A stretch of DNA of 64,000 bases, taken from assembly GCF_964213995.1 (NCBI RefSeq), contig NW_027590189.1:434001-498000 (forward strand), written 5' to 3'. Each line of letters opens with the position of its first letter. Position 1 is the stretch's first letter. This DNA is from Mustelus asterias. Its lineage: Eukaryota. Positions 49,780-61,150 of the stretch are shown here, piece by piece. The notes below the pieces were generated by a model that was not told the DNA's origin, did not search any database, and saw only the letters and a program-made list of their open reading frames with translations. The position numbers and the translations under genes were made by a program.

Positions 49780-50911
49780 GCAGGGATAAACAAGATCGAG
49801 ATTGTCTCCTCCTCCAATGGATACAAAATTGGCTTCTTGACGCAAGCCAGAGGATGGTTGGAGAGGGTTGTTTTTTCAAACTGGACGCCTGTGACCAGCA
49901 GTGTGCCTCGGGGATCAGTGCTGGGTCCACTGTTATTTGTCATTTAGATTAATGATTTGGATGAGGATATAGGAGGCATGGTTAGTAAGTTTGCAGATGA
50001 CACTAAGATTGGTGGCATAGGGGAGAGTGAAGAAAGTTATCTTCAATTGCAACGGGATCTTGATTGTGCCAGTGGGCTGACGAATGGCAGATGGAGTCTA
50101 ACTTAGACAATGCGAAGTGATGCGTTTTGTTAGATTGAACCAGGGCAGGACTTACTCAGTTAATGGTAGGGCGTTGGGAAGCGTTAGAGAACAAAGAGAT
50201 CTAAGGGTACATGTTCATAGCTCCTTGAAAGTGGAGTCTCGGGTGGACAGAATGGTGAAAAAAGCATTCGGCATGCTTGGTTTCATCGGTCAGAACATTG
50301 AATACAGGAGTTGGGACGTCTTGTTGAAGTTGTACAGGACATTGGGAAGCCCACACTTGGAATACGGTGTGCAATTCTGGTCACCCTATCATAGAAAGGA
50401 TATTATTAAACTAGAAAGAGTGCAGAAAAGATTTACTAGGATGCTACCGTGACTTGATGGATTGAGTTATAAGGAGAGGCTGGATAGACTAGTACTTTTT
50501 TCTCTGGAGCGTAGGAGGCTGAGGGGTGATCTTATGGAGGTCTTTAAAATGATGAGGCGCATCGATCAGCTAGATAGCCAATATCCATTCCCAGAGTTGC
50601 AGAGTCTAAAACTAGAGAGCATAGGTTTAAGGTGAGAGGGGAGAGATTCAAAACTGTCCAGAGGGGCATTTTTTTCACACAGAGGGCGGTGAGCGTCTCG
50701 AACAAGCTGCCAGAGGTAGTAGTAGAGGCGGGTATAATTTTGTCTTTTAAGAAGCTTTTAGATAGCTACGTGGATGTGAAGGCTATGGAGGGATATGGGC
50801 CAAATGCGGGCAATTGGGATTAGCTTAGGGGTTTAAAAAAAAGGGCGGCATGGACAAGTTGGGTCGAAGGGCCTGTTTCCATGCTGTAAACCTCCATGAC
50901 TCTATGACTCT
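49780..50911 (+). mobile_element. CR1 RT 3' portion, degenerate
   Basis: GSVLGPLLFVI, KFADDT, HLEYGVQFWSP, FFTQR; tail ctccatgactctatgactcta. Confidence 0.9.
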
Positions 50912-51226
50912 ACTGGCATCGCCAGCGAAGCCCACATCCCCTGAATCAATAACAATAAATAATGTACTCGAAACCAAGTAGAGCATGCCACCCACAACTG
51001 TTGATCACCTGCTGAAATTCTGGATTCTCGCTGCCGGGAGTTTCGACTGAAAATTCACAGCTCAGTTCCCCATTTAAATACTTGAGTTTCATTTTAAACT
51101 GTGGGCGTGGCCTAATTTACCATTGATCGGGTCTGAAGTATTTCAGTGCAGCTCTGATATCCAGTCTCCCAGAGCAGTCCAGCTCTGTAGTCTCAGCTCC
51201 CTGGCATATAAACCGTCAGCAGAACG

Positions 51227-51722
51227 ATGGGAATCCTTCTTGTTTTCACCCTGTGTGCCTGTTTACCCTGATGAGTACCGATCAAACTCACCCACATTGC
51301 GTGGATTGAATATAAAGCTGCCCCAGTCCATCTCAATTACAGACACTGTCTAGGATTTTAGCCCCTTTGTTTGGTCCATTAAACTCTGTGTTTAATTTCC
51401 AGGATCTTTCAATCAGTCAGTGACACAGAGCCTGGCAGCGTTGACCAGGAAGGAGTGTCAGTCTCTTACCATCACCTGTGTTTTCTATGGAGTTTATGAT
51501 TTAGAAAATGGTCATTTTTTTCAGACAAATCCAGACCGGGACGGAGCGGGAGCGGATCTCCAGCGGAGGGAGATTTATTGTACTGGTGAATAAAGCAGAA
51601 AAGACATTTTCACTGGAAATTCGGGATGTGAGAGTTGAAGACAGTGCCACCTATTACTGTAAAGTTCAGCACTGGTACTACTCACATAGGACACTGCACT
51701 GGGAGAGAGTTCGACAAAAACC
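51227..51722 (+). pseudogene. NAR-TCR V pseudogene (leader 51227-51269, V exon 51403-51694, broken 12-RSS to 51722)
   Basis: Paralog of 61150-60669. Donor mutated (gatgagt), +1 frameshift in the T run near 51515-51521, heptamer decayed to tgcactg, 12-nt spacer, perfect nonamer acaaaaacc. Confidence 0.88.
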
Positions 51723-52057
51723 TCAGGACAATCAAAACAGTAATTCCCAGCAATTCCCATGTTCGGTAACTTGACTTGTCGGGTTGATGTTATTCCCAGT
51801 TCAATCTAGTTTAATTTCATTGTAATTTCCACCATCAGCTATAATTCTTCAAGGCTTTTCGCTGTTAATAAGAATCTTGCATCTCTGCTCCTGTTCCTGG
51901 GAAATTTTACCAGGAGCTCAGAGAGTCAGAAGGAAAACTTTTGTCCAATGATGTTTTGTTTTTAAACAACCAATGTTCATTATTGATTTAAATCCCCTGA
52001 ATAACCGAGAAACACTGATTGCTGGGTAATGGCTGCTCGGCAGTTTGAGGTGTCAGT

Positions 52058-52148
52058 CATTCTTGTGCTGGGCTGACTGAGAGCGCTGACACTGTGGGGA
52101 GAATGAAGGTTACAGATGGGTCTGGGACGGTGGTGACTATCACAGCCG
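52058..52148 (+). other. NAR-TCR J segment (52097-52148) with upstream 23-RSS
   Basis: cattcttgt + 23 nt + cactgtg, then GRMKVTDGSGTVVTITA-G|gtaagt (open frame, phase 1). Confidence 0.88.
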
Positions 52149-52436
52149 GTAAGTGACTCCTAATCCCAGTGTGTTGCAGCCTGTTTAGGTTAGTGTTCAC
52201 CGTCAGTTTAAATTCGTTACCAGCATCACTTCAATTGTCTGCTTCTAAAGCAGGGTGGTTTCCTGAGGAAGATTTTCAATTGCAGATTTAGACTTAGGAG
52301 CAGAGTATGAAACGGAAGTCGAGTCCGGCTGTGAGACCAGTTTGAAGCAGTGTGAGACCCCAAAGGGCAGGTTTCCTCCGGGGAAGGAGTTTCAGCTGAT
52401 CCTATCTGGGCTATTATTGGTTTAAGGAACAGCAAA

Positions 52437-52927
52437 AAGTCTCACAACACTAGATTAAAGGCCGACAGGTTTACTTCGAATCACGAGCTTTCGGACCGCT
52501 GCTCCTTTCTCAGATGTGTGGAGAGTTGGGTTCACAAACATGGCAGCTATAGACAGAGACGCAATTGCAAGAAAATGGTTGGAATGCGAGTCTTTACAGG
52601 TAATCAAATCTTTACAGGTGCAGACAATGCGAGTGAAGAGAGGGATATTCACAGGTCAAAGAGGTGTGAATTGTCTCAAACCAGGACAGATGGCAGGACT
52701 TTGCAAGCCAGGGAAAATGGTAGAGGTTACATGTAGTGTGACATGAACCCAAGATCCCGGTCCTCAAAGACGCGCATTCCAACCATTATCTTGGAATTGC
52801 GTCTCTGTCTACATATGCCATGTTTGTGAACCCAACTCACCATTCACCTGAGAAAGTAGCAGTACTCCGAAAGCTCGTGATTCCAAATAAAACGGTTGGA
52901 CTTTAACCTGGTGTTGTGAGACTTCTT
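52437..52927. mobile_element. Penelope-like element remnant with long inverted termini
   Basis: aagtctcacaacac..aatcacgagctttcgga is inverted against tccgaaagctcgtgatt..gtgttgtgagactt. Confidence 0.6.
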
Positions 52928-53047
52928 ACCGTGCCCACCCCATTCCAACGCCAGCGTCTCCAATCATGGTTTAAGGAAGGCATCGGGTAATCCTCACAAC
53001 ATCTTGCACTCTCACTCTCCTAACTGGTTTCAGTGAGCGTACATTCG

Positions 53048-53385
53048 GGGAGGTGATGGCCAAATGGAATTATCGCTGGACTATTAATTCAAAAACACAG
53101 CCAAAGTTCTGGGAGTCCCGCCAGCGCAGATGGTGGAATTTCAATTTAATAATCATATCTGGAATTAAGAATCTACTGATGACCATGAAGCCATTGTCGA
53201 TTGTCAGAAAAACCCATCTGATTCACTAATGCCCTTCAGGGAAGGAAACCTGCTGTCCTTGCCTGGTCTGGCCTACATGTGACAGCAGAGCCACAGCAAT
53301 GTGGTTGACTCACAACTGCCTTAGGGTACCTGGGGATGGGCAGCAAGCCAGCGACGACGCCCATGTCACATCAATGAATAAAAAT
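53048..53385 (+). mobile_element. Second SINE family (DeuSINE-like core); another copy at ~58340-58720
   Basis: Shared core tcactaatg.cct..agggaaggaaa.ctgc..tcctt..ctggtctggcctacatgtg in both copies. Confidence 0.55.
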
Positions 53386-54569
53386 ACATTATGGACGCTC
53401 CGAACCCTGCTCCCTGCTCTCCGCTGGGAGAGAGCGGAGCCACCGAGCACAGGATTTCTCTCTGCTCCAGGAAATGGTCTAAAAGAGGCCTGGAAATGTC
53501 AACGAGATACCGGGAGAGGTAACCCAAAATTGCAGCAGCCGGTCCAATACCTGCAGCGGCAGGAAAACGGGAACATGACACAAATAGCTTCGAGAGCTTA
53601 TTTGATACTTGTAGGTGACATTTCACGTGCAATCAGTGACTCAAAATAATTATATCCTAACTGATCTTTATTTCCTTCCTATAAACAATCATTTTGGCAG
53701 AACTGCGAAAAGTTTGAATTGCATTCTCTTCCACATATTGATCGCTAATTGTGGACAAATCCGTTTGCTTTATGTTTTTTGTCGATTTCAAAAACATGGG
53801 ATTGTGCTGATTGAAGCATAATGAATCCCTCAAGGATTGAGTTGTGTCGAGGCTGAGGGTGCTGAACCGTTCCATGGATTTTAGTTTTGAATGCTAATGG
53901 AAGTAATGGATTTGGGAATAGGACGCACAGTTAGCATTAAGGTAGATGATCAGATCTAAACATTTCTGATTTGTACAGCGGGTCCCCAAGGTGGATTAGT
54001 CTACCATGTTTCTATTTCTTAAGTATCTTATTATCAGCATGAATTTCTTACACTTCTGAGAAAAAAAAATCAATAATGTGTTTGGGTATCGAAAGTTTGG
54101 AAAAGCTCTGCCTTTTGGCTTTCGAAGGCCGGTAAGACATGAAAAAGCAGCACAGAAACACTGAACATTATATTGTAGTTTCAAGGAGCTCCATGTGCAG
54201 AAACTGTTCCTTCGGTGGGAGAGTTGTTCTTTTATCTTCTTTAATTCATTCGTGTGACATGGTGTCGCTGGTTGGCCAGCATTTATTGTGCATTCCTGGT
54301 CGCCCTTCAAATCAATGGCTGGCTGGGCCATTTTTAAGGGCAGTTGAGAGTCAATCACATTGCTGTGGCTTTTTCTGAACATCGGAAATGGTTTCACGGT
54401 CAGCAGCAGATACTTAACTTCAGATGTTTAAAAATTGAAGTCAAATTCCACCAACTGCCGAGGCAGGATTCGAACCAGGGTCCCCAGAAGAAGTAGATAT
54501 TTATATATGAAATATGAAATGACTATCAGAAGAGATAGAAACATTCGGGTATATTTGTGCGGAAACACA

Positions 54570-55441
54570 TCAACTTGCAGAGGGATTTGGACCAACGAGA
54601 AAAATGGGCTGAAAAATGGCAGATGGAATTTAACGCAGACAAGTGTGAGATATTGCACTTTGGAAGGACAAACCAAAGAAGAACGTACAGGGTAAATGGT
54701 AGGACTCTGAAGAGTGCAGTTGAACAGAGGGATCTGGGAATACAGGTACAGAAGTCCCTAAAAGTGACGTCACAGGTGGATAGGGTCGTAAAGAGTGCCT
54801 TTGGTACATTGGCCTTTATAAATCGGAGTATCGAGTATAAAAGTTGGAGTGTTATGGTAAGGTTATATAAGGCATTGGTGAGGCCGAATTTGGAGTATTG
54901 TGTACAGTTTTGGTCACCTAGTTACAGGAAGGATGTAAATAAGATTGAAAGAGTGCAGAGAAGGTTCACAAGGATGTTGCCGGGACTTGAGAAGCTGAGT
55001 TACAGAGAGAGATTGAATAGGTTGCGACTTTATTCCCTGGAGCGTAGAAGATTGAGGGGAGATTTGATAGAGGTGTATAAGATTTTGATGGGTATAGATA
55101 GAGTGAATGCAAGCAGGCTTTTTCCGCTGAGGCTGGGGGAGAAAAAAACCAGAGGGAATGGGTTAAGGGTGAAAAGAGAAAAGTTTAAAGGGAATATTAG
55201 GGGGGGCTTCTTCACGCAGAGAGTGGTGGGAGTGTGGAATGAGCTGCCGGATAAAGTGGTAAATGCGGGGTCACTTTTAACATTTAAGAAAAACTTGGAC
55301 GGGTTCATGGATGAGAGGGGTGTGGAGGGATATGGTCCAAGTGCAGGTCAGTGGGACTAGGCATAAAATGGTTCGGCACAGACAAGAAGGGCCAAAAGTC
55401 CTGTTTCTGAGCTGTAATTTTCTATGGTTCTATGGTTCTAT
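54570..55441 (+). mobile_element. CR1 RT 3' fragment
   Basis: ORF 54557-55360 LQRDLD..WQMEFNADKC..LVRPNLEYCVQFWSP; tail ttctatggttctatggttcta. Confidence 0.92.
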
Positions 55442-56483
55442 GTGAAGCTCGCTCTTTGGAAAAACGTCGTGATGAATTTATGGCACAGCTTGAAAAATAT
55501 GGGCGGGAGAGAGGAATAAATAGACACACAGCTGAGGATGAGAGGAGAAGGGGATGTACGAGAACAAGCTTCGATCATCTGGACCAAGTGGCCTATTCGT
55601 GTTCAGTGGAAAGTGTAGAATATAAAACTCAGAGACTATTCTGTTCGGAAAGGACAGGGAACAATCAGCCAATGGACTGAAGGGATTGAAATTATCACAT
55701 CCCGTAAAGGCAGTTCCCAGTGAGTAACAGTAAAACCACTGCGGAAACTGAACAGACTGAACCAACCGATAACTGAGAGAAATTAGGGCACGTTTTCATG
55801 ACGGTTAGAAACCGCCATGAACAGACAGAAAACAACTCAGATGTAGAAATAAAATGAAATCAACTTGCAAATATTTCTAATGGAAGTAAAACGGTAGAAT
55901 TGATGGACGGAAAGAGACAAATAGCCCAACGGCAGACTGGATTTACCTTGTAATGTTGAACTGCGGCCAAAAGTCGATCTTTGACCCACAGATTTACATT
56001 GTCATTTCGGATTAATAGGTGTGGACGAAAATCTCTGTTCTGTGCTGAACCTTGGTATGTACTGAAATATAAGACTGCTGATTTTCCTTCGGACAATCAA
56101 ATCTAGACAACAATTGATTCATTGACGGGAAGAGTGAACTTTACGATTTAGTTTTCTGGTTCGCATTTCACCAACATATTTATTAGCAGATATTTAATAA
56201 AAATAAAATCATACTCTGCAAAAAAAACACAATTCTGTCAATAATGACAGTAATTTGAAGGTGCTGCCAATATATCCATTCGTTCTTCTTTTTGTCCCCA
56301 CTGGAATCTTGTCCTGTCCCAGAAGTCTTTGTCCCTCAATTGCCCCTCAAGATAATGTTCAATCTGCTTCCAGAACCACCCCTTCCGCAGTGCACTTCAG
56401 GTGACTGCAATTCTCTGTGAAAAAAAGATCTGAAGATCTGCCACGCTTGTTTATTTCCAATAATCAATGCATTTTGAAACACA

Positions 56484-57168
56484 TTCATAGAATCCTTACA
56501 GGACAGAAGGAGGCCATTTGGCCCGTCAAGTCTGTACCGACCACATCCCACCGAGTCCCAGGCAATATTCCCATAACCCCACATATTTATCCTTCTAATC
56601 TTTCTCGGACACTAGGGTCAATTTACCTTGGCCAATCAACGTAATCTGCACATCTTTGGACTGTGGGATGAAATCGGAGCACCCGGAGTAAACCCAAACA
56701 CACACGGGGAGAATGTGCAAACTCCACACAGACAATGACCCGAGGCCAGAATTGAACCTGGGTCCCTGCCGCTGTGAGGCAGCATTGGCAACCACTCTGC
56801 CACCGTGCCACCCCCTAGGGCGGCACGGTAGCACAGTGGTTAGCACTGCTGCTTCACAGCTCCAGGGACCCGGGTTCGATTCCCGGCTTGGGTCACTGTC
56901 TGTGTGGAGTTTGCACATTCTCCTCGTGTCTGCGTGGGTTTCCTCCGGGTGCTCCGGTTTCCTCCCACAGTCCAAAGATGTGTGGGTTAGGTTGATTGGC
57001 TGTGCTAAAAATTGCCCTTAGTGTCCTGAGATGTGTAGGTTAGAGGGATTAGTGGGTAAATGTGTAGGGATATGGGGGTAGGGCCTGGGTGGGATTGTGG
57101 TCGGTGCAGACTCGATGGGCCGAATGGCCTCTTTCTGTACTGTAGGGTTTCTATGATTCTATGATTCT
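56484..57168. mobile_element. Head-to-head pair of HE1-like SINEs (minus 56484-56812, plus 56817-57168)
   Basis: Two opposed tRNA-like heads meet at ~56815. The plus copy is near consensus with CR1-type tail ttctatgattctatgattcta. Confidence 0.88.
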
Positions 57169-57275
57169 AATTAAATTAAACAAATTGCCACAACAGACAG
57201 GTGTTCATCCGATTGACAAGTTTTCCCGGGTAAACAGTGGCTCAACAAACAATTCATTTTATTTCTACACTGCAG

Positions 57276-57578
57276 ATTCCAGCTCAGCTGTGTCACCAAG
57301 TTCCCTTCTACAAACCTCTGCTGCCGGTGACCGGTTATTTGAAGCTGCGAATATTCAGGTCTCTGTCAGTACACAGTACACGTACCCTCAGACCCCAGGA
57401 CAGGCTCAGAAATACCTGCTTCAGACACACATTTCTGGAGAGGAGAATAAATCAAACAGTGTCGCGGGGAGGATTTCTGCTTCTATCGATTCTTCCGTCA
57501 AAATCAGCCGGTTAAAGATCTCCAAACTTTAACTGAGCGACTCCGCTGTTTATTACTGTGAACTGAGTTGGCGCACAG
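57276..57578 (+). pseudogene. Supporting TCR Vdelta (NAR-TCR partner) pseudogene, leaderless
   Basis: Acceptor ctgcag|, SSAVS..LQT.AAGD, frameshifts around CDR1, KYLLQTHISGEENK..RISASIDSSVKISRLKISKL*LSDSAVYYCELSW. Paralog of 58185-57880. Confidence 0.85.
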
Positions 57579-57739
57579 CACAGTCGCACAGAACACGGAG
57601 AGAGCTGTACAAAAACCTGAACGTGGTGAGGATTACAGACACAGTGATACAGAACACGGAGAGAGTTGTACAAAAACCTGGACATGATGAGGGTTACAGA
57701 CACAGTGACACAGAACACGGAGACAGCTGTACAAAAACC
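57579..57739 (+). repeat. Three tandem 23-RSSs, 61-bp period
   Basis: Heptamers at 57579 (cacagtc), 57640 and 57701 (cacagtg), each followed by 23 nt and acaaaaacc (57609, 57670, 57731). Confidence 0.95.
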
Positions 57740-57779
57740 TGAACATGCATTTCAGATTCTTGGGAGCTCACCATGTTCA

Positions 57780-57879
57780 GGCTTCTGTATAACTCGCCCC
57801 GTCTTCTGTATCACTTTGTCTGTAATCCTCACCATGTTCAAGTTTCTGTACGGCTCTCTCCCTGTTCTGCATCACTGTG
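57780..57879 (-). repeat. Two tandem 23-RSSs, 61-bp period (first canonical heptamer, second degenerate)
   Basis: cacagtg + 23 + acagaaact (57879-57841); caaagtg + 23 + acagaagcc (57818-57780). Confidence 0.9.
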
Positions 57880-58185
57880 CTGTGCGCCCACTCAGTGCAC
57901 AGTAATACACAGCGGAGTCGCTCAATCGCAGCTTGGAGATCTTTAACCAGCTGATTTTTTCGACAGGGTCGACAGAAGCAGAAATTCTCTGCCCGGCAGC
58001 GTTTTCTTTGATCGCCTCGCCTGATGTGTGTCTCTTAAGCAAGTATTTTGGGGTCTCTCCTGGAGAGTGACGGTACCAGTAGAGTGTGTGTTGACAAAAT
58101 CCTGGATATTCACAGTTTAAAGTAATGGTGTCGTCAGCAGCACAGGTTTGGAGAGACGGATTCTGTGACACAGATGAACTGGATT
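57880..58185 (-). CDS. Supporting TCR Vdelta of NAR-TCR, intact and leaderless, Cys in CDR1
   Basis: Phase-1 acceptor ctgcag| (an alternative in-frame acceptor starts the exon at 58194). SSVSQNP..TLNCEYPGFCQHTLYWYRH..LKISKLRLSDSAVYYCALSGR. The nearest recognisable upstream donor belongs to the NAR J, and no leader exon is seen. Confidence 0.9.
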
Positions 58186-60217
58186 CTGCAGAACCTATAA
58201 AATAATGCATTTCTATGATTCCATTACTTGCGTTGCATGTTAGTTTGCCCAGGGAAATATAATCGCGTCAATAGCTCGCCATTTTCCCGTAATTGTTTCA
58301 TTAAAGGGTGTGCGACATTTATTCACTATAATTAATTAGGGAGACGGTGGCAAAGTGGTATTATGACTGGATTGCTTAATCCAGAGATTTAGTAATCCAA
58401 GTAATACGCTGGGGACACGGGTACGAATGGTGCCACGGAAGATGGTGAAATTTGAATTTCAATTCAATATTGAATTGATTTCAATAAAACAAGCATGTTA
58501 ATTCAAAGATGACTATGAAAACATTGTCGATTGCCGTTAAAACCACATGTGTTTGACTAATGTTCTTGAGGGAAGGAAATCTGCCATCCTTATCTGGTCT
58601 GGCCTACATGTGGCTCCTGATACACAAAAATGCGGTTGACTCTTAAATGCCCTCTAAAATGGGCTTCGCAAGCCATCCTGTTCAAAGGCAATTAGGGACA
58701 CCCACATCCAGAGGATGAATTGAAAAAAAATGGCAAAAGAGCCGAGGGGCAGATACTTAGATGATTTTTTTTGTACACAGCGAATTTTGCTCATCTGGAT
58801 TATTTGGAGATGTGTGTTGGAAACAAATTCAACACTCATTTTCGAACGGTAAATGGAAGAAATATACAGAATCAGATTAGAATTCCGGGGGTTTGAAGAG
58901 CAGGAAGGTAAAATAGGAAACGTTCAGTAGCACCTGCAAAGAATGACCACTTGGTCAGAGTGATGTCCTTCTCTGGTTTCTGATTTTATATTTTATATTT
59001 AGTGTCTGCTTCTGTGTATATTGGCGATTTACAAACCTGAGGAAATTATATGAAAGTTCACTCTTCTCACTATAACAATTGCTGTCCAGAGTTGATTGAC
59101 TGAGAGTAACACTGCCGTTTTATATGCTGGGTCGCATCAAGATTCAGGCAAAGACGGTCATACTCGCCCAGCGAAACTGATTAAGCGAAACTGACATTGC
59201 ATATCTGTGTCAAAGATCAACCTTTGACTACAGTCCAACTCTTTGCACAGTTTCGTCCATCAATTCTACAATTTATATTATATATTAGAATGATTTACAG
59301 TTAATACCAGTGGATTTATAAATCTGAGTTGTTCTCTTTGTACTGCTTGCGATTTCTTGCCACCACGAGAACCTGTCCCAGACACTCTCCAATGTCAGTT
59401 GAGATCAGCATGCTCAGTTTCCCCGATTGACTTGCTCACTGTTACTCACTGTGAAGATTGCCTTTTCAAGGTGCCTGAGATTTTCAATTCCTTCCATCCA
59501 TTGGTTGATTGTTCCCCATGCTTTCTGGGCAGAATCCTCTCTGTATTTTATATTATATAGATTCCACAGAACAGAAGTAGGCCAGTCGGCTCACAGTACG
59601 CTTGTCCTTGCACTGCGCACTACTCCCCTCTCACACTCGATCCCTAACGAAACCATTGTACACTGAGCACTGTGTCCTTCTCCCTCCTCGATCTTTCACG
59701 CCGTCTGAAAAATTCCTTACGCCATTTACTGCAACCACTCCATGTGGCAGCTCGCTCCACATTCCTCCTAATTTCTTTTTCTTTTATCTCACTGGCATCA
59801 TATTAAATGTTTCTTTAATCTGAATCATTTTCTCCACACGTACATTAATGAATCTATCAATTAATGCTAAAGATTTATATCAACACCAAAACCTGAAAAA
59901 TGTTGGCAAACCTCAACAGGTCTGGAGACAGAATAGAGTCAACGTTTCCAGTCTGGATGACCCTCCGTAAGAGCCACAGAGAGAAGCAAAGTTGACACGA
60001 GGACAGAAGTCATAGCTTCAAAATGTGGACCCGACTCCAGTTTCCTATTCTGCTCCCAAATCTAAAACTGCAATTGAAAATCTTCCACAGAAACCCCCTT
60101 CCCCCACGCTGCTATTGTAGTCACAGAGGATTGAAGAGAGGCAGACGACAAGAATGAACTGACGGCGAAAACGAACCAGGACATTCTGCAATACGGGGGG
60201 GATTTGGAGTCACTTAC

Positions 60218-60309
60218 CAGCTGAGACAGTCACCACCGTCCCAGACCCGTCTGTAAATCTCCACTCTCCCCACAGTGTCAGCGCTCTCAGTCAGCCCAGT
60301 ACACGAATG
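60218..60309 (-). other. NAR-TCR J segment (60270-60218) with 23-RSS
   Basis: cattcgtgt + 23 nt + cactgtg, then GEWRFTDGSGTVVTVSA-G|gtaagt. Confidence 0.88.
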
Positions 60310-60640
60310 ACAGACACCTCAAACTGATGGGGAAAAAATTACCGAATAGTCAGCGTTTATCAATTATTCAGGGGTTATAGATCAATAATGAAGTATGATA
60401 GTTTTATAATTCCCATTGGAACAAACTGTTCCTTGGGACACTCTGAACTCTTGGCAAAATGGCCCAGGAACGGAGTGGAGATGGACGCTTCGTAGAAATG
60501 GAATAAAAAAGTTAAAGAAAGATAACTGAAGGGAGGAAATTACAACGAAATGAAATCATGTTGCAACGATAATAACAACAACCCGACAAGCTATGGTCCG
60601 TGTCCTGGAAATTATTGCTTCGCTTGTTCAGAAATACTTA

Positions 60641-60668
60641 AGTATTTGTTCTCCTCTCTTCCACTGTG
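60641..60668 (-). other. 12-RSS of the NAR-TCR V
   Basis: cacagtg + gaagagaggaga (12 nt) + acaaatact. Confidence 0.88.
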
Positions 60669-61150
60669 GTGTCCCATGTGCGTAGTACCAGTGCTGAGCT
60701 TTACAGTAATAGGTGGCGGTGTCTTCAATTCTCATGTCCCGAATTTCCAGCGAAAATGTCTTTTCTGCTTCATTCACCGACACAACAAACCTCCCTCCGC
60801 TGGAGATCCGCTCCCGCTCTGTCCCAGTCTGGGTTTGTCTGAAGAAATGGCCATTTTTTAAATCATAAACACCATTGAAAACACAGGTGATGGTGAGAGA
60901 CTGACACTCCTTCCTGGTCACCGCTGCCGGGCTTTGAGTCACTGACTGACTGAAACATCCTGGAAATTCAACACAGAGAGTTTAATGGACCATCAGAGCC
61001 GAACCGCACAACGGGGCTAAAACCCCAGACAGTGTTTGTAATTGAGATGGACTGGGGCAGCTTTATGTTCAATCCACACAATGTGGGTTAGTTTGATCGG
61101 TACTCACGGGGTAAATAGGCACACATGGTGAAAACAAGAAGGATTTCCAT
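60669..61150 (-). CDS. NAR-TCR V segment (IgNAR-like V), apparently intact; leader 61150-61108, V exon 60959-60669
   Basis: Leader MEILLVFTMCAYLP|gtgagt. V: SVTQSPAAVTRKECQSLTITCVF..FFRQTQTGTERERISSGGRFVVSVNEAEKTFSLEIRDMRIEDTATYYCKAQHWYYAHGT. Short FR2-CDR2 region as in VNAR and an extra FR1 Cys. Confidence 0.92.

Follow-up and report, generated by a model that had tools for sequence, protein, structure and literature searches.

A NAR-TCR cassette with V and D joined in the germ line, one member of a multi-copy family in Mustelus asterias

Cartilaginous fish are said to possess a doubly rearranging TCR-delta, NAR-TCR, an account credited to Criscitiello in 2006. In the available portion of PMC1845163, the receptor is characterized by a leader, an a-b loop cysteine and the lack of the WYRK tryptophan in its first V, followed by a leaderless supporting V with a cysteine in CDR1. 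NAR-TCR is described as assembled through two separate VDJ rearrangements.

Two other systems come close to the locus described here. The excerpts of PMC4279169 describe shark immunoglobulin VD-J clusters that share with it a germline V-D fusion, a single remaining RSS pair and limited CDR3 diversity, and in which the joining is attributed to RAG acting in germ cells. Those clusters, however, serve B cells and have C exons of their own, whereas the present fusion lies in the tip domain of a TCR, and downstream of it a second V(D)J event is still required. Marsupial TCR-mu has a supporting V that is fully joined, likely by retrotransposition (PMC7615758 and PMC3457774, as far as their accessible text goes). 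In contrast, it is the tip V that is joined here, only partly (VD) and with its leader intron kept, in an independent lineage. A germline V-D shortcut is known from shark antibody genes and hardly recorded for T-cell receptors. Our literature searches for a joined NAR-TCR found nothing, and a mention in Criscitiello 2006, Deiss 2019, Ott 2021 or their supplements would still be possible.

The cassette lies in a 64,000-nucleotide stretch of Mustelus asterias DNA, called the window below, within an 809-kb contig (C157). At a probability of about 0.7, we read it as a germline V-D-fused NAR-TCR, likely the product of one RAG event and probably usable, that requires a single join for its tip domain.

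NAR-TCR identity of the window cassette

The sequence-only reading had proposed a minus-strand leader, NAR-type V, J, leaderless supporting V-delta and 23-RSS with open frames, and all of these lie where it put them. Features are listed below in window coordinates.

61108..61150, minus: leader exon (MEILLVFTMCAYLP), 43 nt and 14 codons from the ATG at 61150, with a phase-1 GT donor at 61107
60669..60959, minus: NAR V exon, open frame; it contains RKECQ and reads FFRQ where WYRK would stand
60681..60959, minus: NAR-type V segment, with the a-b loop Cys (RKECQ) and without the WYRK Trp
60669..60680, minus: V-D junction of 12 nt, CACA plus the D-like remnant TGGGACAC
60641..60668, minus: 12-spacer RSS (CACAGTG / ACAAATACT), heptamer at 60668
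60310..60640, minus: former D-to-J interval, which aligns over its whole length with the stretch from D3' to J in ordinary cassettes
60271..60309, plus: 23-spacer RSS of the NAR J (CACAGTG / ACACGAATG), heptamer at 60271-60277, nonamer weak
60218..60270, minus: NAR J segment (GEWRFTDGSGTVVTVSA), phase-1 GT donor at 60217
57880..58185, minus: leaderless supporting V-delta, open to 57880, with GFCQH (CDR1 Cys) and LQTCAA (extra FR1 Cys)
57841..57879, minus: 23-RSS of the supporting V, from the RSS scan
57780..57879, minus: the same 23-RSS and, 61 bp further along, a degenerate second copy (CAAAGTG at 57818)
50909..57739, plus: facing pseudogene cassette, also of the V-D-fused lineage

Leader and V translate without a stop, and 22 nt of V 3' end follow the second cysteine. 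The junction is in frame with V, giving a germline CDR3 start of KAQHWYYAHGT, and an RSS scan found no separate D between the 12-RSS of the NAR V and the 23-RSS of J. The supporting V has two in-phase phase-1 acceptors, at 58194 and 58185, the latter being the one that matches its paralogues; no leader was recognised upstream of it. The cassette had also been called complete and apparently functional. It is indeed unbroken, but its function is only inferred and its J nonamer is weak.

Membership of the NAR-TCR family is supported by every sequence criterion tested, all five features given in the available part of PMC1845163 being found in the cassette (the WYRK tryptophan, for example, is replaced within GHFFRQ). 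Its likeness to NAR-TCR as portrayed in the accessible text of PMC1845163, PMC5931798 and PMC12227049 covers the leader, the IgNAR-like V, a J of its own, the supporting V-delta, which is leaderless and has an RSS and the CDR1 Cys, the a-b loop Cys and the missing tryptophan; a linkage to C-delta type exons is also seen in this genome. The V is kin to that of IgNAR yet stands apart from IgNAR clusters: its best PDB matches are shark VNAR domains (E 3e-18), and it is 86-93% identical to 15 unjoined NAR-type V exons versus 70% at the nucleotide level to the genome's IgNAR-type V on C71. Protein searches returned a 100% match labelled Mustelus asterias. They also returned relatives with two V domains from some dozen further sharks and rays, and the NAR-TCR name was attached to none of the homologues. 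An IgNAR cluster (V, three D, J and IgNAR C exons) was considered and rejected, the supporting V coming after J. True V-D-D-D-J units of IgNAR type occur as L019 and L020 on C71 (0.73 and 1.0 Mb), a 20-Mb contig that they share with NAR-TCR cassettes and three C-delta exons.

The description of the cassette as doubly rearranging stood in part. A 12/23 pair is present for each rearrangement, namely the 12-RSS and 23-RSS for VD-J, and the 23-RSS of the supporting V with the 12/23 D-delta of C110, C115 and C138. The tip domain, however, needs one join and not two. A NAR-TCR cassette as such is known biology, and it is the V-D fusion that makes this one a variant.

Both additional cysteines noted before, in FR1 of the NAR V (RKECQ) and in CDR1 of the supporting V (GFCQH), are present; the interdomain disulfide taken to be established for nurse shark is called putative in the available text of PMC1845163. 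The a-b loop cysteine occurs in 40 of 41 aligned proteins and the CDR1 cysteine in 39 of 41. A further FR1 cysteine in the supporting V (LQTCAA) sets the cassette apart from known NAR-TCR; it is found in two of the 41, both from the cassette's own lineage, and in 14 of the 22 supporting V exons compared, all 14 from V-D-fused cassettes. The pseudogene paralog lacks it, as had been stated, reading LQTSAA. This residue may be buried and unpaired, because its spacing puts it at a position that in V domains is usually held by a small inward-facing residue. The C-delta domain of P0020 has the canonical Cys pair only. An AlphaFold model of the two-domain fragment gave two Ig domains (mean pLDDT 82, pTM 0.63), and a fold search with it returned generic two-V-domain antibody constructs only.

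The facing pseudogene shows a GA leader donor, a frameshifted V, the heptamer TGCACTG and a broken supporting V (57270-57578), behind which lie three tandem 23-RSS at 57579, 57640 and 57701. Tandem 23-RSS with a 61-bp period thus lie behind both supporting Vs at 57575-57883, two on the minus and three on the plus strand, face to face; the C71 copy has up to five. The tail-to-tail pair of an intact and a dead fused cassette (50909-61150 in the window) recurs on C71, C87, C88, C90, C115, C153, C160, C444, C447, C786 and C2349. The window also holds four ordinary TCR alpha/delta-type Vs with 23-RSS on the plus strand, at 29.1-29.4k, 38.2-38.5k, 42.3-42.6k and 63.0-63.3k, the last containing a stop codon.

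The V-D fusion and its germline status

The NAR V and D of this cassette are pre-joined, and it is not an ordinary cassette. Ordinary cassettes of the same genome, drawn from 20 paralogous stretches and others added later, run V, 22-spacer RSS, 415-453 bp, 12RSS-D-12RSS, 377-380 bp and 23RSS-J. In the window and its lineage, by comparison, 12 nt and then a 12-RSS come after the V end, this RSS standing 394-402 bp before J, and the V-to-D interval of about 450 bp is missing. The 12-RSS behind the NAR V and the RSS 3' of the free D in ordinary cassettes are homologous. When the window's 12-RSS-to-J interval was scored over non-coding sequence only, with J and its RSS excluded and 30 shuffles each, it gave +12 to +45 against the D3'-to-J interval of 11 of 11 ordinary cassettes, versus -207 to -275 against ordinary V-RSS intervals (best shuffle -164). 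The remnant TGGGACAC resembles the 3' core of free D segments, which end in TGGGACAGT (L018) and TGGGACCACT (L025); the free D segments compared with the last eight bases of the junction were TAGTGGTTGGGACAGT and TAGTGGTTGGGACCACT. The interval homology and the D-like end of the junction show that three elements are gone, namely the RSS of V, the interval between V and D, and the RSS on the 5' side of D, and that V is fused to the end of D. Judged by these alignments, the V-to-D interval is lost with both inner RSSs, and the 3' RSS of D is kept.

The fusion is germline and multi-copy, since the junction is shared by at least 30 copies of a single lineage and is spanned in independent DNA runs. 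A search of the genome for the junction pattern gave 30 exact matches, with none for the reversed control, and the C87 copy has a one-base variant of the pattern beyond these 30. In a tree of the interval, a 100/100 branch separates 25 fused copies from 11 ordinary ones (fused copies C87 and C71_11098k being absent from this tree, and L020 from both trees). The V-exon tree of 27 versus 15 rows does not reject a single fused clade (p-AU 0.27), and by itself needs two changes of the fused label. Contigs from two independent DNA runs cross the junction without gaps, one from X1 over 60387-60766 and one from X5, a second organism, over 60419-60907 with 11 differences. The fusion is also old, because its three subgroups are only 75-79% identical in the 12-RSS-to-J interval (86-90% in the V exon).

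Among 27 fused copies examined, 11 show no damage to any part inside the fetched DNA and 12 are damaged, including the window's facing copy; three more have an intact tip with the supporting V beyond the fetched stretch, and one has an altered J heptamer. Some of the near-identical copies may be haplotype duplicates, but twelve copies are 98-100% identical in protein to the window cassette, more than two haplotypes of one locus would give. Over 255 bases, dN/dS between the window V and three copies from the other fused subgroup that is intact is 0.27-0.39. Gene conversion could be another reason for V exons this alike.

Origin of the join and expected use

As in the shark immunoglobulin clusters, RAG activity in the germ line is the likely origin of the V-D fusion. 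The joint sequence itself cannot decide between RAG and deletion: the four bases past the V end are CACA, a heptamer start in the place of the old V heptamer, and the V ends of ordinary cassettes, 22 to 24 nt long, frequently finish in CA themselves. A plain deletion in the germ line, by way of the short homology between ATGGG at the start of the V-RSS spacer and TTGGG in the D core for instance, would leave an end product identical to that of RAG. CACA does occupy the V heptamer start, and CAC-ATGGG resembles the heptamer and spacer starts of ordinary V-RSSs, as such a deletion would have it. Yet deletion would need the loss of four further bases, and the ends of V and of D alike stay in frame, much like a coding joint. 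Moreover, clean coding-type joints occur in the same assembly, of supporting V to D-delta on C119, C96, C436 and C850, of D to J on C173, and as a V-to-D inversion on C122. We infer that these joints tip the balance to RAG, roughly three to one, and consider ordinary deletion unlikely.

These other joints take several forms. In clusters L033 (C119:553k), L045 (C96:1455k) and L025 (C436:213k), which are 98.2-98.5% identical over 1.7 kb, the supporting V runs into the 3' end of D-delta at one and the same clean junction; this shared junction is likely a germline join. Other coding-type joints of V to D-delta were seen once each, in L021 (C850:36.3k) and L064 (C71:11,023,780). In L041 (C122:393k), a supporting V is fused head to head with the NAR D, as by inversion between its 23-RSS and the 3' 12-RSS of D, in a copy otherwise like that at 12.22 Mb on C71. 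The NAR cassette L006 (C173:95k) has its V-RSS and 5' D-RSS intact and its D fused to J, and C90:1135k may be similar.

If the fused cassette is used, its VD (12-RSS) would join J (23-RSS) with deletion of about 400 bp, and this single 12/23 join would finish the tip domain. The supporting V (23-RSS) would then join the D-delta (12/23) and a J-delta of one genomic D-J-C-delta cluster, and splicing of leader, VDJ, supporting VDJ and C-delta exons would give a three-domain delta chain that pairs with TCR-gamma. The tip CDR3 would open with KAQHWYYAHG, residues set in the germ line, and would have a single variable junction, and consequently its repertoire would be narrower than that of ordinary cassettes. 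An untrimmed VD-to-J join is out of frame, so that trimming or additions of net -2, +1 and the like would be needed.

The splicing pattern finds support in runs X19 and X20 from another species, where homologues show the leader-to-V joint (with GT-AG ends), the V-to-J joint and the J-to-supporting-V joint. The two runs belong to one study and probably one data set, RNA by our guess. Their homologue is diverged, with 29 differences in 142 bases of supporting V, and its fused status is not provable; these joints support the pattern for the family rather than for the window copy. Cover in runs X21 and X17 was low. RefSeq has a model that matches the cassette, P0003, in which the V-J intron starts at the GT inside the heptamer; we took this for an artefact of annotation rather than a sign of expression.

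Alternatively, the window copy could be a silent passenger that is never used, having arisen by recent segmental duplication or being a redundant copy in the assembly, with a weakened J signal and D-J-C out of its reach. Its J nonamer ACACGAATG is derived and weak, with four mismatches to the consensus versus three in most sisters (ACAAGAATG), and is shared only by the C90 and C115 copies; being one mismatch worse, it may lower the efficiency of J recombination in the window copy. No C-delta was found on the contig, a dead cassette faces the copy, and its identity to the C90 copy is 99.85% over 10 kb. On the other hand, its frames, splice sites and heptamers are all intact, and even when the comparison is with the C71 copy, which is 98% identical, dN/dS remains under 1 (0.09, from four changes, in V and 0.49 in the supporting V). 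The C90 and C115 copies, moreover, lie 0.27 and 1.04 Mb from a C-delta. We consider a silent passenger improbable. Some single-copy joints elsewhere in the assembly (C122, C850, C173) could be somatic. For the fused family, the idea that the reference has caught a rearrangement made in a T cell, or an artefact of assembly, is refuted by 30 copies with identical junctions and flanks diverged to 75%, and by junctions bridged in independent runs from two organisms.

C-delta exons and the layout of the locus

A genome search found 19 open C-delta exons on 17 contigs, three of them on C71 (7.14, 11.04 and 12.27 Mb) and the rest on 16 other contigs, with 81-100% protein identity; none was found on the 809 kb of the cassette's own contig. 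The C region in these clusters reads as delta-type because its best PDB matches are human TCR-delta chains (E about 1e-15, with alpha at 2e-9 or weaker), the nurse-shark C-alpha primer peptide SKGLLSTN is missing from it, and D segments lie upstream. An unjoined-V NAR cassette stands 16-58 kb upstream on the same strand for 15 of the 19. C110, C115 and C138 each carry a free D-delta with 12/23 signals, behind which come four to six J and then three C exons, of which the fetched DNA of C138 includes just the first. Most C-delta exons end a small unit of NAR cassette, D-delta, three to six J and C, in an Ig-like multi-cluster layout, whereas the available text of PMC12227049 describes TCR-alpha/delta as a translocon. 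Upstream of D-delta, there are IgH-like Vs with 23-RSS at 5-16 kb on C110 (955k) and C115 (39.8k), and a V end with 23-RSS at 0.4 kb on C138 (218k).

These exons also bear on orientation. The cassette does oppose the window's five other V-type genes or cassettes in strand, as first reported, and two V genes just outside the window are on the minus strand like it. The further claim that one set must join by inversion presumes a single D-J-C block, and is not forced, because 19 C-delta exons exist and none was found on the cassette's own contig. Of two copies nearly identical to this cassette, the C90 copy lies 270 kb downstream of a C-delta and faces it, which is inversion geometry; the C115 copy lies 1.04 Mb upstream on the same strand, which is deletion geometry.

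A wider and more tentative reading, which we hold to be possible although doubtful, is that the TCR-delta locus of this shark has an antibody-type layout, with germline pre-joining by RAG at several junctions and a semi-invariant, innate-like NAR-TCR family. D-J-C-delta miniclusters would be fed by dozens of NAR cassettes, with pre-joins of NAR V to D in at least 30 copies, of supporting V to D-delta in three related clusters, and perhaps of NAR D to J. If true, this would provide a fast-assembling NAR-TCR with a fixed aromatic CDR3 stem, which would be the T-cell equivalent of the germline-joined IgM of neonates and would parallel TCR-mu.

As for the germline V-D-fused NAR-TCR itself, a family that has been kept and expanded would be the second case of germline joining in TCRs, and would extend the activity of RAG in shark germ cells from Ig to TCR genes. 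It would also predict a subset of gamma-delta T cells whose tip CDR3 is narrow and in part inherited. Finally, the 19 C-delta exons bear on the origin of hybrid Ig/TCR receptors and of cluster layouts.
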